NCBI RefSeq assembly: GCF_000368025.1
Contig: NZ_KB849212.1
Location: 1-32,000, forward strand
Source of the DNA: Acinetobacter parvus DSM 16617 = CIP 108168
GTDB lineage: Bacteria > Pseudomonadota > Gammaproteobacteria > Pseudomonadales > Moraxellaceae
Length of the DNA: 32,000 nt
Direction of reading: 5' to 3'
The position numbers and the translations under genes are program-made. Each line of letters begins with the position of its first letter. Position 1 is the stretch's first letter. The notes under the pieces were generated by a model. The model was not told the origin of the DNA. It saw only the letters and a list, made by a program, of their open reading frames with translations, and did no database searches. Of the stretch, positions 4,775 through 20,232 are shown one piece after another.

Positions 4775-5061
4775 GCTTGAAATCAATACTTGTATCTGTC
4801 GCAGATGCAACATTATCAAAAACAGGAAAATCACTTTTAAAGGGTTTGGGTTTAGGGGTGTTTTCTAGTGCTGTTGTACTCACTTTGTTTAATCAATTGA
4901 TTTCTTACGCTCAAACTGAGTGGGGCAAAATGTCTGCTGACGTATTGCAGATACTTGCCCTGGGCAATATTGACTACGGGCTGTCAATCATTGTTGGGGC
5001 ATGTGTTCTCAAGGTTACATTGATGATTAACAAGGTCTCTTTAGGAAAGGCATCAAGCTAA
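4771..5061 (+). CDS. Minor coat protein (pVI/Ace-like)
   Basis: ATGA overlap with the upstream stop. 96 aa with two or three hydrophobic helices. TAATG overlap with the zot start. Confidence 0.7.
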   Translation: MSLKSILVSVADATLSKTGKSLLKGLGLGVFSSAVVLTLFNQLISYAQTEWGKMSADVLQILALGNIDYGLSIIVGACVLKVTLMINKVSLGKASS

Positions 5062-6269
5062 TGGCTATTTATTTAATTGTTGGGCAGCCACGACACGGAA
5101 AAAGCCAATTTGCTGCTAAAATGGCTTATGAATATCACGAAAAAAACATTGAGATTCAAAAACGTATAGATTCTGGAAAGTTTAATCCTGAAACGGACAT
5201 TGTGCGACAAATTTACTCAGATATTGAGGGTCATGCAGAAAAGTGTGACTTTATAAAACTTGCACCAAAAGATTGGCGTGATGTTCCTGATAATTCCATT
5301 ATTTTTATGGATGAAATACATAAAAGGCCTGAATATACTGATAATGATGGCAAAATGTCTCAAAATCCCATGATTGTTGATTTAACAACGCATGGGCATC
5401 AAAATAAAGACATTATCTTGATGACTCAAGACCCACAAAGACTAAACAAGGGTATTAGAGCATTAGTTGAAAAAATGTACTTGGTTAAACGACCAGTTCA
5501 AAAACCTAATTTTGCTACTATCTATGAATTTGAAAGATGGCTTCGTGATCCGTGGCAAGCTGCTGCATCAACACGTACTGTTAATTATCAGGACAGCTAT
5601 AAATTCTTCTATAAGAAAAAATGGCAAGACATGTACACCAGTGCATCTGCTCATACTTCAGTACAGTTCAAAATACAAAGTAAGTTCATTTACGCAATCA
5701 TTGCCATTGTGGTTTTAATGTCTGCGTCATGGTTTCTGTTTACAAAGTCGGGCGGTGACAAGCTCGCACGTAATGCCATAGGTGGCATGACAGGGCAAAA
5801 ACCTACTGAAGAAAATAAAAGTCAATCGACTCAGAGTACGCAATCTGTCCCCAGTGGTACCCAGAATTTAGATACAGAATGCAGAAAAGGCGCAAATGTT
5901 GAAAAACCTGAATGTGTAAAATGGTTTGATCAGATTACCAAAAATGGTTCTTCGGTTTCCCCTGGGGAGAATGGCCATACAACTGTTGCATATAATCCAG
6001 CTCAACCGTTTGATAATGACATACAAAACCATGTTTCTTATGAAGTTACGGCAAAACCATTATTTAGTGGTTGTATGAAAACAGGTAGTAAATATCAAGC
6101 ATATACACAACAAGGGACAAAACTTGATGTATCACAAGCCGACTGTCAGCGTCTCATTGAGAACAACGACAGACCTTTTAATTACTTTGTCAATAATCGG
6201 ACTGATATGTCGAGTACAGAGATGCAGCGAAGCGAAGTTTCTACACAGACAAACCAGCCGACCCTTTAA
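5061..6269 (+). CDS. Zot/pI-family phage assembly ATPase
   Basis: Walker A GQPRHGKS at the N-terminus, Walker B IIFMDEIH, central TM helix FIYAIIAIVVLMSASWFLF, periplasmic C-terminal domain. Canonical gene order. Confidence 0.85.
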   Translation: MAIYLIVGQPRHGKSQFAAKMAYEYHEKNIEIQKRIDSGKFNPETDIVRQIYSDIEGHAEKCDFIKLAPKDWRDVPDNSIIFMDEIHKRPEYTDNDGKMSQNPMIVDLTTHGHQNKDIILMTQDPQRLNKGIRALVEKMYLVKRPVQKPNFATIYEFERWLRDPWQAAASTRTVNYQDSYKFFYKKKWQDMYTSASAHTSVQFKIQSKFIYAIIAIVVLMSASWFLFTKSGGDKLARNAIGGMTGQKPTEENKSQSTQSTQSVPSGTQNLDTECRKGANVEKPECVKWFDQITKNGSSVSPGENGHTTVAYNPAQPFDNDIQNHVSYEVTAKPLFSGCMKTGSKYQAYTQQGTKLDVSQADCQRLIENNDRPFNYFVNNRTDMSSTEMQRSEVSTQTNQPTL

Positions 6270-6295
6270 GATTTCCCGCAACGATGTACAACCCG

Positions 6296-6316
6296 GGGCG
6301 ATCAACGCCCTTTTTT
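6296..6316 (+). terminator. Rho-independent terminator after zot
   Basis: GGGCG-ATCAA-CGCCC followed by TTTTTT. Confidence 0.6.
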
Positions 6317-6610
6317 ATTGCCATTGCAAAAATAGGGCAGAGATCATTAATTCAAAAACACGATAAAAAATAAATAATGATAGAAATAAAATGTTTGACA
6401 ATCTTATTACGACAAATAATGACGTTACAAGATCAAATATTCATCATAAGCAAAACATGTGCCAATAGTGTTTTGTCAATATATATTGTGTATTTTAAGA
6501 TGAAAGGTTATTTCACGCCTTGCCACAATTCATCAAAATCATGCTCTATGCCTCGTTGCGTATGATCTTGGCATGGCGTTATTGGTTCTTGCTGCGAGAA
6601 TTATATTTAT

Positions 6611-6632
6611 GGCTATTCGGAATAAGGTGTGG
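6611..6632. repeat. Left terminal inverted repeat of the cassette
   Basis: GGCTATTCGGAATAAGGTGTGG. Its reverse complement, CCACACCTTATTCCGAATAGCC, matches 7349..7370 except at one base. Confidence 0.85.
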
Positions 6633-6675
6633 AAACTGCCATTTGTTGGTAATTCAAAATAATTCCAATTAACTC

Positions 6676-6704
6676 TTGTTTTGTGAGCGGTCACACTTTA
6701 TAAT
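6676..6704 (+). promoter_or_regulatory. Sigma70-type promoter with an operator palindrome in the spacer
   Basis: -35 TTGTTT (6676..6681), a 17-nt spacer and a consensus -10 TATAAT (6699..6704). The spacer contains TGTGA-GCGG-TCACA (6683..6696). The promoter lies about 25 nt upstream of the GGAG RBS of the 6730 gene. Confidence 0.65.
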
Positions 6705-6729
6705 TAACACATAGACAAGGAGATTGATA

Positions 6730-7152
6730 ATGAAATTATTCCACACAAGCCCAAACAAAATTGAGAAAGTTTCTAAGTTTGGTAACTTTGATGATTGCTT
6801 ATTCTTCTCTACAAATGTTTATGAAATGTCAGCAGGTGAAACTATCACTTACTCAATTAATGCTGATGATATGCGCTTTATCGATGCTTCTGATTTGCAT
6901 GATAGTGAAGTCATAGCGGAAATTGCTGAACGATTTGAGATTGATTTAGATGATGCAGAAAGCTTATTAGATGGCTCAGATAGTGTTTGGAATCATGACT
7001 TTGCTGATGCTGAAAACGATTGGTTCATTCAAGCTAAACGTGGTGAATGTGCTAAAAGAATGGGCTTTGATGGTTGTAAAGATCATGATGAGCAAGGTGT
7101 GGTTTACATCATCCCAATGCTCAATCGTGAATCAATCTTAGTTGAGGAGTAA
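6730..7152 (+). CDS. AcrIF11-family-like small acidic protein (candidate ADP-ribosyltransferase anti-CRISPR)
   Basis: The ATG at 6730 has a CAAGGAG RBS 7 nt upstream. 140 aa. MKLFHTSPNKIEKV...GNFDDCLFFS...Y.M.AGETITYSI...WFIQAKRGECAKRMGFDGC.DHDEQGVVYIIPML matches my memory of AcrIF11 (MEIFHTSP...DEQG...). An H...Y...E arrangement typical of ART folds is present. This rests on recollection and was not searched. Confidence 0.6.
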   Translation: MKLFHTSPNKIEKVSKFGNFDDCLFFSTNVYEMSAGETITYSINADDMRFIDASDLHDSEVIAEIAERFEIDLDDAESLLDGSDSVWNHDFADAENDWFIQAKRGECAKRMGFDGCKDHDEQGVVYIIPMLNRESILVEE

Positions 7153-7157
7153 TTAAA

Positions 7158-7340
7158 ATGGCTCAGACAGCAGCAGAGCGCAAAGCTAAACAACGTCAAG
7201 AAATGTTAGACAAAGGCTTTGTTCGCAAAGACCTTTGGTTATCAAAAGAAAGTCTTGATTTGATCGAAAAATATAAAACAGAAAATAACTTAAAGTCGAA
7301 CGATGATGCGCTTAATCAATTATTAAAGGCTCTAAATTAA
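7158..7340 (+). CDS. Small RepB/RHH-like DNA-binding protein, candidate anti-CRISPR-associated (Aca) regulator
   Basis: GAGGAG RBS 8 nt upstream. 60 aa. AERKAKQRQEMLDKGFVRKDLWLSKESLDLIEK resembles the RepB-type regulatory pattern (AERqxryRxxxxxxGxxxxxvWvxxe). Located 5 nt downstream of the acr-like gene. Confidence 0.55.
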   Translation: MAQTAAERKAKQRQEMLDKGFVRKDLWLSKESLDLIEKYKTENNLKSNDDALNQLLKALN

Positions 7341-7348
7341 GAGCCTTT
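7325..7348 (+). terminator. Hairpin at the end of the cassette operon
   Basis: AAAGGCTC/GAGCCTTT 8-bp stem whose loop contains the stop codon at 7338..7340. It abuts the right IR. There is no clear T-tract, so terminator function is uncertain. Confidence 0.4.
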
Positions 7349-7370
7349 CCACACGTTATTCCGAATAGCC
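7349..7370. repeat. Right terminal inverted repeat of the cassette
   Basis: CCACACGTTATTCCGAATAGCC, followed directly by ATATTTAT. Confidence 0.85.
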
Positions 7371-7446
7371 ATATTTATGTGCTTAAATTTGACCATCCTT
7401 GCCCTGATTACAAAATCCTCCCTCATGTTCTATGAGGGATTAACCA

Positions 7447-7518
7447 TAAAAGCCTTTCAGGGGAATTGTCGTGCCCGAGCAGTGCGCAGGGTCGACAAGG
7501 CGTAGTCTAAGGCTTTTA
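7447..7518. repeat. Nested GC-rich hairpin (candidate ssDNA structural element)
   Basis: TAAAAGCCTT (7447..7456) pairs with AAGGCTTTTA (7509..7518). An inner stem pairs TTGTCG (7466..7471) with CGACAA (7493..7498). The interior is markedly more GC-rich than the flanks. Confidence 0.6.
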
Positions 7519-7530
7519 ATATGGTGGTCT

Positions 7531-7710
7531 ATGAACACGGATAAACTAATCACAATGCTTGACTCGTATCTCGAGTTGCTCCAGGAGCAAAATGCACCTG
7601 ACGAACAGATCACAGAGGTTAAGTTGATGGTATGGGCAATACAGCAGGATATGAAACTGCAACGGTTCATTAATAACCTGACGGTCAGCAACTCATATTA
7701 TAGGCGTTAG
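7531..7710 (+). CDS. Hypothetical small helical phage protein
   Basis: The internal ATG at 7531 gives 59 aa, MNTDKLITMLDSYLELLQEQNAPDEQITEVKLMVWAIQQDMKLQRF..., with protein-like composition. The opposing ORF 7440..7691 is Cys/Ser-rich and looks non-coding. The RBS is weak. Confidence 0.4.
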   Translation: MNTDKLITMLDSYLELLQEQNAPDEQITEVKLMVWAIQQDMKLQRFINNLTVSNSYYRR

Positions 7711-7712
7711 GA

Positions 7713-7740
7713 TTTCCGCATAACTTAGATTATGTTCATT
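7713..7740 (+). other. Inverted, degenerate dif-like site (attP-type partner site)
   Basis: TTTCCGCATAA-CTTAGA-TTATGTTCATT. XerC arm 9/11, XerD arm 9/11 and centre 3/6 versus dif. Orientation is opposite to the dif 85 bp away. Confidence 0.5.
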
Positions 7741-7825: not shown

Positions 7826-7853
7826 ATTTAACATAATATACATTATGCGAAAT
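7826..7853 (-). other. dif: Chromosomal dif site (XerC/XerD, terminus resolution site)
   Basis: Reverse complement ATTTCGCATAA-TGTATA-TTATGTTAAAT is identical to E. coli dif GGTGCGCATAATGTATATTATGTTAAAT except for the first four bases. Confidence 0.85.
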
Positions 7854-19044: not shown

Positions 19045-20232
19045 TTAAATCAAATCTAAACCGCGTGATAAGTCACGAATAATATCATTAATATCTTCCA
19101 AGCCAACAGATACACGGATCAATCCTTCTTCAATCCCTGCGGCTTGTTTGGCTTCGGCAGACATTCTACCATGCGAGGTGGTTGCTGGATGGGTAATTGT
19201 TGATTTTACATCGCCCAGATTACTGGTAATCGATAGGAAACGCGTGTTGTCAATCACCGCCCATGCGCCTTGACGCTCACCTCTTACAACAAATGAAACC
19301 ACACCACCAAAACCTTTTTGCTGTTTTTTAGCAAGCTCGTGCCCAGGATGGTCAGGCAAACCTGCGTAATACACTTTTTCAACCTTGTCATGTTGATGCA
19401 ACCATTCAGCCAGTTTTTGTGCATTTTCACAGTGCGCTTTCATACGGATACTGAGCGTTTCCAAGCCTTTTAGGAAAATCCATGCATTGAATGGACTCAT
19501 TGAATTACCAAGGGTACGCACAACGCCGTTAATTTCTTCAACCAAATCGTTCTTACCAACAACTGCACCACCTAAAGCCCGTCCCTGACCATCAATATAT
19601 TTAGTTGCTGAATAAAGAACCAAATCGGCACCAAACTTAATCGGCTGCTGTAACACAGGTGTACAGAAACAGTTATCCACTGCAAATAAAGCACCATGCG
19701 CGTGGGCAATATTTGCAATTGCCTGCATATCGCCCACCTGTGCCAAAGGATTCGAGGGTGTTTCAATAAAGAGAATACGTGTATTTGGACGAATTGCCTG
19801 TTTCCAGCCTTCAAGATCATCTAAATCAACAAAAGTCACTTCAACAGCAAATTTTGCAACGTACTTTTCAAATAAGGCAATGATTGAACCAAAAACGGCG
19901 CGTGAACAAATCACATGATCGCCCGCTTTTAAATACGCCATACACATGGCATGTACTGCTGCCATCCCTGAACTGGTTGCTACCGCACGCTCTGCGCCAT
20001 CCAGAACAGCTAAACGTTTTTCAAAGGCTTGCACTGTTGGGTTGGTATAGCGTGAATAGGTATTACCTACGATTTGCCCAGAAAATTTTGCGGCAGCATC
20101 AGCTGCACTTTCGCAAACAAAAGAAGATGTTAAAAAGATAGGTTCACTATGTTCGCCCTCAAAGGTGCGATCATGCCCTGTGCGAATTGCCAGAGTGTCG
20201 AGTTGATATTCTAAATCATCGCTTGGATTCAT
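19045..20232 (-). CDS. metZ: O-succinylhomoserine sulfhydrylase (PLP-dependent Cys/Met metabolism family)
   Basis: [28 protein letters not shown]. The PLP lysine is in the [11 protein letters not shown] context. The ATG at 20232 is preferred over the upstream TTG at 20304. Confidence 0.88.

Follow-up and report, generated by a model that had tools for sequence, protein, structure and literature searches.

The first 32,000 nucleotides of contig NZ_KB849212.1 from Acinetobacter parvus DSM 16617 (the window, to which all positions refer unless another locus is named) contain a two-gene operon in which an anti-CRISPR gene of the AcrIF11 family is followed by a gene for a 60-amino acid (aa) protein, a candidate anti-CRISPR-associated (Aca) regulator. 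Both genes lie within a 760-bp element (6611–7370) that is bounded by terminal inverted repeats (TIRs) and contains these two small open reading frames (ORFs) and no transposase. ORF1 starts with an ATG at 6730 and ends with a stop codon at 7150–7152, and ORF2, the candidate aca gene, occupies 7158–7340, leaving a gap of 5 nt; both are on the + strand. Each is preceded by a Shine-Dalgarno site, AAGGAG at 6717–6722 for ORF1 and GAGGAG at 7144–7149 for ORF2. The 140-aa product of ORF1 (6730–7152) matched the NCBIfam equivalog NF052490 with E=5e-44 and 150.7 bits, against a cut-off of 50, which places it in the AcrIF11 family of ADP-ribosyltransferase anti-CRISPR proteins. It also matched PDB entries 8dwq (E=2e-18) and 6kyf, AcrF11 (E=2e-3, aligned residues 1–127), and PF26151 was precomputed for it.

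Reading of the sequence upstream of ORF1 identified a −35 hexamer, TTGTTT (6676–6681, + strand), and a −10 hexamer, TATAAT (6699–6704, + strand), separated by a 17-nt spacer (6682–6698). An earlier reading made from the sequence alone (the sequence-only reading) had called this promoter near-consensus. That description suits the −10 hexamer, which agrees with the consensus at 6/6 positions, but not the −35 hexamer, which agrees with TTGACA at 3/6, in the TTG alone; for this reason the promoter has no entry in a generic consensus scan. Nearly all of the spacer is taken up by a candidate operator palindrome, TGTGAGCGGTCACA, with arms and centre TGTGA-GCGG-TCACA. The sequence-only reading had already placed a palindrome in the spacer, one base off at 6683–6696; its actual position is 6682–6695 (no strand assigned), which corresponds to about −30 to −17 if transcription starts near 6711, the predicted transcription start site. 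The pattern TGTGA-N4-TCACA occurs once in the 32-kb window, where 0.05 occurrences are expected, and was present at least once somewhere in 5 of 100 shuffled versions of the window. Taken alone, its rarity is modest evidence; the decisive weight comes from the comparison with related loci described below.

The protein encoded by ORF2 matched no informative family when its sequence was compared with Pfam, NCBIfam, PHROG and PDB; the only matches were phrog_27670 (‘unknown’) and a weak one to DUF6084. A word-indexed homology search returned 109 clusters, all the named ones from Acinetobacter, and ORF2 is kept at 49–98% identity across over 100 protein clusters. When a profile was run exhaustively against 1.84 billion representatives, only 49 clusters were recovered, and a second word-indexed search with a wider alignment found nothing beyond the close family. 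The cluster sources of remote members were Acinetobacter or metagenomes only, and a scan of species-representative genomes gave a single locus. As judged from these searches, the family is small and restricted to Acinetobacter.

The structure of the 60-aa protein was predicted with AlphaFold2 (AF2) using the family alignment. The model, with a predicted local distance difference test score (pLDDT) of 89.4, has helices at residues 5–18, 30–42 and 48–59 and an extended segment at 19–29, which is the shape expected of a ribbon-helix-helix (RHH) monomer with an extra N-terminal helix. When the model was compared with PDB using Foldseek, the best matches were all RHH proteins (NikR, MazE, VapB, Arc and CopG), superimposing about 38 residues with a root mean square deviation of 0.7–1.5 Å, and a search with the family profile gave weak matches to the designed RHH protein 2mdv (E=0.015) and to the RHH domain of NikR (E=0.55). 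The most conserved residues, K11, R13, G20, K24 and W27, are in the N-terminal helix and the strand; the basic helix, AERKAKQRQEML, is conserved in the family and the strand reads FVRKDLWL. With a predicted strand followed by two helices, and with its likeness to solved RHH structures, the modelled protein is predicted to belong to the RHH superfamily. The sequence-only reading had held that the protein is not a helix-turn-helix (HTH) protein and had suggested modelling it, and the outcome of AF2, Foldseek, profile search and hhalign, a predicted basic helix followed by a β-α-α fold, agrees. Its label ‘RepB-type’ did not survive: the window protein and four relatives gave no match to Pfam RepB-RCR_reg (PF10723) or RHH_1 at E≤10, and a weak RHH_1 match was seen in one of 37 relatives (E=0.096). 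The label is a better fit for Aca14, discussed below.

Loci containing homologues of the 60-aa gene were gathered from genomes, metagenomes and viral contigs (cited here by L numbers), and only those with enough upstream DNA were scored for the operator. In every scored locus a single TGTGA-N4-TCACA-like site stands at the head of the operon whose last gene is the homologue, flanked by a TTG −35 on one side and an A/T-rich −10 on the other. In total, TGTGA-N3/4-TCACA was found in the same promoter spacer in 18 independent contexts, in either orientation. When 16 distinct promoters were aligned, no columns were invariant except the TTG of the −35, GTGA and TCAC. Relative to the promoter the site can face either way, its centre reading GCGG or CCGC; this speaks for a symmetric binding site and against inheritance of promoter sequence. 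The suggestion of the sequence-only reading that a repressor acts at this palindrome thus gained weight, since the palindrome is conserved and co-varies with the regulator across related loci. The operator centre is GCGG or CCGC in the main regulator clade, GAAC in the P0114-like clade (L052, L054), CATG in the P0109 clade (L011) and CTAG with P0116 (L065), and with P0117 (L064) it is CAG, one base fewer, giving N3 spacing. At L051, an element of the same TIR family with AcrIF11 cargo, a different small RHH-like ORF stands in the regulator's place, and the palindrome in the promoter spacer is TGTCG-N6-CGACA. Of the computational evidence for binding of the palindrome by the 60-aa protein, this co-variation of predicted regulator and operator is the strongest. 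The replacement protein (52–59 aa, encoded at L051 1925–2083 and L053 1892–2071) has a basic N-terminus and an RHH-like pattern, follows AcrIF11 homologues that are 74–78% identical and has no Pfam match; going by these features, it may represent a further non-HTH Aca family.

The same comparisons bear on two other explanations of the palindrome. One is that it is the site of a host regulator, of the LacI/GalR or the CRP/Vfr type, and that the 60-aa protein has some other role. The arms TGTGA and TCACA are indeed CRP half-sites, and the operator consensus TTGTGAGCGGTCACAA (window 6681–6696 together with the promoter alignment) is one base off the symmetric lac operator core and shares TTGTGAGCGG with lacO1. 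However, the half-sites are separated by N4, or N3 in one clade, where CRP sites have N6, and a CRP-type site was rejected on this spacing. A host factor would also not predict that the centre follows the clade of the 60-aa protein, or that the whole palindrome is exchanged when the gene is replaced, and gene and site travel as a pair across many phages and species of Acinetobacter. We therefore regard control by a host regulator as unlikely. Given the likeness to the lac operator, the LacI present in common E. coli hosts could distort the outcome of reporter assays. The other explanation, that the palindrome arose by chance next to a functionless ORF, could appeal to the shuffled windows described above, but is refuted by the comparative data: position and arms are kept in the 18 contexts while flanks and cargo diverge, and the ORF is conserved as described above. 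We give it practically no credence.

Two further conserved sequences were noted in these promoter regions. A leader, TCATCAAGACGAGATGG..AGATCGAA, follows the −10 (alignment columns 72–100; L011, L019, L029, L030, L038 and L054) ahead of unrelated cargo genes; the AcrIF11-type operon of the window lacks it. Before the aca homologue there is a conserved motif, aaacattacttagcaag. The two may be a regulatory element of the 5′ untranslated region or recombination arms for cargo exchange.

The genes that precede the regulator were then compared. AcrIF11 is the cargo directly before it, in the same orientation, in the window and in L013–L018, L042, L052 and L065, the position by which Aca proteins are recognized. 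In L038–L041 and L047 the cargo is a 78-aa AcrIF5 homologue (PDB 7eqg, E=3e-4, within a concatenated query). The remaining cargo comprises more than 12 unrelated small proteins, mostly acidic and without a family match; cargo lengths include 82, 94, 103, 108, 125, 169 and 266 aa. The linkage to acr genes proposed in the sequence-only reading was thereby borne out, both by the AcrIF11 gene directly upstream in the window and by the other acr-like cargo of the homologues, and its proposal that the gene would serve as a marker proved useful, because a guilt-by-association search with the regulator found further loci with AcrIF11 and acr-like cargo. One predicted regulator family is thus associated with acr or anti-defence cargo that differs from one mobile element to another, and the putative operator is an inverted repeat within the operon promoter, both as expected of an Aca.

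This variety of cargo also bears on the possibility that the operon is a toxin–antitoxin-like pair, in which an autoregulating RHH antitoxin neutralises the ADP-ribosyltransferase. Antitoxins with an RHH are common, the Foldseek matches include MazE and VapB, AcrIF11 is an ADP-ribosyltransferase, and weak MazE-like Pfam matches were found in 3 of 37 relatives. A toxin–antitoxin pair would have a fixed partner, whereas this regulator is found after many cargo proteins that are unrelated to one another. In addition, the helix and RHH of the AF2 model use all 60 residues and leave no toxin-binding tail, and the regulator gene is last in the operon, not first. An antitoxin role is on this evidence very improbable.

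In many related loci, one to four units resembling type I-F CRISPR repeats are located between the cargo and the regulator, always on the strand opposite the aca homologue. Rfam RF01317 (CRISPR-DR4) scored 37.8 and 37.7 bits in L019 (2926–2953) and L029 (2870–2897), above the gathering threshold of 35, and lower in L011 (3344–3371), L038 (2870–2897) and L025 (2750–2976). L025 has four units in tandem, and the stems of the units co-vary. The units resemble the RNA anti-CRISPRs, solitary repeat units, of Pseudomonas phages, and are candidate RNA anti-CRISPRs or a candidate mini-array. An Rfam scan of the window gave no match and no I-F repeat mimic. Among the genes that neighbour loci with an aca homologue are a Tad2-like gene, an Acb2/Tad1-hairpin gene and a Tn7-like tnsA/tniA pair (such neighbouring features are at L064 147–671, L022 4450–4836, L001 6468–9089 and L044 572–1791), and in L044 a 94-aa cargo gene is broken by an IS3-type insertion. 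These neighbours fit a view of anti-defence islands as hot spots for mobile DNA.

A 33-nt inverted repeat flanking the operon resolves into two 25-bp TIRs and an 8-bp direct repeat, ATATTTAT. The left repeat, TIR-L (GGCTATTCGGAATAAGGTGTGGAAA), is at 6611–6635 on the + strand and is identical at 24 of 25 positions to the TIR of L058; TIR-R, identified by inverted-repeat search and comparison of copies, is at 7346–7370 on the − strand. The direct repeats are at 6603–6610 and 7371–7378 (no strand assigned) and are identical, as expected of a target-site duplication (TSD). Three metagenome contigs (L061–L063) contain the empty site, with the filamentous-phage flanks joined through a single copy of ATATTTAT. 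The same 760-bp unit, at least 97% identical, was found in unrelated tailed-phage contigs, where homology stops exactly at the repeats, and each copy has its own 8-bp duplication at a different site: among 13 paired elements, the duplication was perfect (8/8) in 10 and matched at 7/8 positions in three. Related elements are present in L006, L009, L010, L011, L019, L021–L023, L042, L051 and L054. Elements with near-identical TIRs encode ISL3 transposases (DDE_Tnp_ISL3, E=2e-59 in L058 and 1e-64). The element in the window is therefore a non-autonomous ISL3-family element with an acr–aca passenger. A stem-loop, AAAGGCTCT-N6-AGAGCCTTT (7325–7348, + strand), spans the stop codon of the aca gene and has no U-tract.

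Interpretation of the 33-nt inverted repeat as XerCD/pdif-type sites or as folded attP arms was dropped in view of the separate 8-bp TSD of each copy, the empty sites and the relatives with ISL3 transposases. The ISL3 element of L058 itself (5627–7543) shares these TIRs and is autonomous, and its passenger, encoded beside the transposase, is a 150-aa Dam-family DNA methyltransferase (PF05869, E=1e-30), possibly another anti-restriction cargo. The window element shares its 25-bp TIRs, 8-bp AT-rich TSD and lack of a transposase with known non-autonomous insertion sequence (IS) derivatives that have passengers, such as mobile insertion cassettes, which resemble miniature inverted-repeat transposable elements, and transporter IS, including those of ISL3. 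It differs from them in that its cargo is a putatively self-regulated acr–aca operon and its targets are phage genomes. No description of an acr–aca operon as cargo of an ISL3-type transposon was found in a literature search.

The location of the operon within an ISL3-derived element, and the ability of Aca proteins including Aca14 to regulate neighbouring operons (PMC13551039), raise the possibility that the RHH protein mainly controls the mobile element, through transposition or TIR binding, or operons nearby. Against this, there is no operator-like site in the TIRs or elsewhere in the window, where the sole site with one mismatch, at 19418, is in unrelated DNA. About half of the loci with gene and operator have no TIRs, and one element with the TIRs, L059, has no regulator gene. 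We consider control of the mobile element or of neighbouring operons a highly improbable main function. From the loci without TIRs it follows that the operon can be a fixed part of a phage genome as well as the cargo of a transposon.

The element is inserted in a filamentous prophage, whose Zot/pI gene is at 5061–6269; the coat and replication genes are present in the prophage copy of L003/L004, and the source contig holds a tandem pair. The prophage ends at a dif site at 7826–7853, and homology to the tandem copy stops exactly at 7853. The sequence there, atttaacataatatacattatgcgaaat, is the reverse complement of the Acinetobacter dif site. A second dif-like sequence, ttccgcataacttagattatgttcatt, is at 7711–7739, about 100 bp upstream. 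These features suggest XerCD-mediated integration of a filamentous phage. Between the insertion and the dif site is a 59-aa ORF (7531–7707) that matches phrog_29274, of unknown function, with E=5e-46; it is also present in the empty-site contigs and so belongs to the filamentous phage backbone. The first 64 nt of L063, on the reverse strand, consist of a spacer and a type I-F repeat, GTTCATGGCGACATACGCCATTTAGAAA, followed directly by zot from window position 6059 (compared with 6057–6090), and position 6059 in the window is preceded by CC, a protospacer adjacent motif. Probably the assembly of L063 is chimeric at its start, joined through a natural CRISPR spacer that targets this filamentous phage. 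Such a spacer would explain the benefit of carrying AcrIF11.

Repression by the product of the last gene of an acr operon is established for HTH Aca proteins, in which a dimeric repressor encoded at the operon end binds inverted repeats in the promoter (PMC12658196, PMC9410906). The HTH families (Aca1, Aca2, Aca7, Aca10, Aca11 and others) and the window protein would share this regulatory logic, with a predicted RHH fold in place of HTH in the window. Aca structures are in PDB (PMC12658196, PMC9410906), though the 60-aa sequence matched no PDB chain. Aca14 is an RHH protein with a helical extension that represses through a promoter inverted repeat, as demonstrated by electrophoretic mobility shift and reporter assays (Feussner et al., NAR 2026, PMC13551039); it is WP_005725436.1 of Pasteurella multocida, with 66–67 aa (PMC13551039), and its sequence and operator were recovered from the preprint supplement. 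Since Aca14 is already an RHH Aca, the RHH fold class is not new among Aca proteins.

Aca14 and the window protein are both small, with an N-terminal helical or basic segment before the RHH, and both are encoded by the last gene of an anti-defence operon that lacks an HTH aca gene and has an inverted repeat in its promoter. Comparison of profile and sequence by hhalign gave a probability of 90.9%, with 20% identity over the 41-residue RHH core only; just four near-identical proteins were found for Aca14. In contrast, BLASTP gave no alignment between the two. Aca14 scores E=6e-5 and 23.3 bits with RHH_1 (gathering cut-off 20.5) and E=0.015 with RepB-RCR_reg, a match that is also precomputed for it, whereas the window protein matches neither. 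The Aca14 operator is an AT-rich 20-mer, TGTATATGTAAGCATATACA, that overlaps the −10, and that of the window is the 14-mer TGTGA-N4-TCACA in the spacer. The typical partners of Aca14 are AcrIF23, AcrIF6, AcrVA3 and csx20, compared with AcrIF11 and AcrIF5-like proteins here, and the hosts also differ. The lack of a BLASTP match, the failure to match RHH_1 and RepB-RCR_reg and the different operators point to a distinct family that would work like Aca14 rather than to a demonstrated member of it.

An Acinetobacter gene named ‘aca10’, located downstream of AcrIF6.2, AcrIF11.3 and AcrIF11.5, has been employed as a marker for acr genes (Shu et al. 2024, bioRxiv 10.1101/2024.01.05.574328); the name collides with that of the HTH protein Aca10 of Pseudomonas citronellolis (PMC9410881). 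Like the window gene, it comes from Acinetobacter, lies immediately downstream of AcrIF11 homologues and serves as an anchor for guilt by association. That paper treats aca genes as encoding HTH proteins (bioRxiv 10.1101/2024.01.05.574328), whereas the window protein is predicted to be RHH. The ‘aca10’ paper gives no sequence, and compared by description the two may be the same gene. The ‘new Aca class’ of the sequence-only reading therefore does not stand as worded, given the earlier description of Aca14 (PMC13551039) and the existing use of the Acinetobacter ‘aca10’ marker (bioRxiv 10.1101/2024.01.05.574328). The predicted β-α-α core, and an operator that overlaps the promoter, are also shared with classical RHH repressors (Arc, Mnt, CopG, the NikR N-domain and MetJ). 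Compared with these, the window protein has an extra conserved basic N-terminal helix, and the size of its operator suggests a single short palindrome rather than tandem sub-sites for a dimer of dimers.

Together, these observations suggest how the operon would work. The sigma-70 promoter at 6676–6704 would transcribe acrIF11 and then the 60-aa gene, so that on entry or induction the promoter would fire and both AcrIF11 and the RHH protein would be made. The RHH protein would dimerise through the β-strand FVRKDLWL, and the dimer would then occupy TGTGAGCGGTCACA in the spacer and block RNA polymerase, so that the operon shuts itself off. Probably one dimer would bind each operator, with the β-ribbon reading the variable centre in the major groove and the two N-terminal helices reading the invariant GTGA/TCAC arms. 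We infer this geometry from the single 14–16-bp palindrome with invariant arms and from a centre that changes with the strand (VRKDL, KRKSF, VLKQI). It resembles the AlphaFold3 model published for Aca14 (PMC13551039). The 760-bp element has transposed into this filamentous prophage, itself integrated at dif, and at other loci into tailed phages of Acinetobacter.

Several observations weigh against this interpretation. The 60-aa protein has no sequence match in Pfam, NCBIfam or PDB; the RHH assignment comes from a predicted monomer model, and all Foldseek E-values were above 1, because the domain is tiny. The GCGG centre of the operator is conserved although asymmetric, and binding by a perfectly symmetric dimer leaves this unexplained. 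A terminator-like hairpin stands between the cargo and the aca homologue in many related loci, and there the regulator may be partly transcribed on its own. The case for strict autorepression is consequently strongest where the operon is of the compact AcrIF11 type, like that of the window. Aca-type autorepression by the candidate regulator is nevertheless well supported computationally, and we consider it likely that 6611–7370 is a self-contained, self-regulated anti-CRISPR module on an ISL3-type mini-transposon, in which the RHH protein binds the spacer operator and shuts the operon. More tentatively, the 60-aa protein may represent an Aca family undescribed by sequence (not Aca1–14), with a basic helix and RHH and a spacer-filling operator, packaged in an ISL3-derived mini-transposon of 0.76–1.4 kb that moves between unrelated tailed and filamentous Acinetobacter phages; we put this forward as possible, with slightly more doubt than confidence.

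A second, sequence-independent RHH Aca family would strengthen the ideas that acr regulation does not depend on the HTH fold and that loci escape Aca finders based on HTH. The gene and its 14-bp operator make a sharp search handle, with which the AcrIF5 homologue, over 12 candidate anti-defence proteins and the I-F repeat mimics were found here. A module on a transposon must behave in any phage in which it lands, and packaging in a transposon would explain the use of a self-contained circuit of promoter, operator and repressor. If the interpretation is correct, the element is a portable, self-limiting anti-CRISPR ‘plug-in’, whose regulation is independent of the recipient phage. Packaging in a transposon also gives anti-CRISPRs a path from one phage type to another, filamentous phages included, among the phages of Acinetobacter, a genus of clinical interest for phage therapy.

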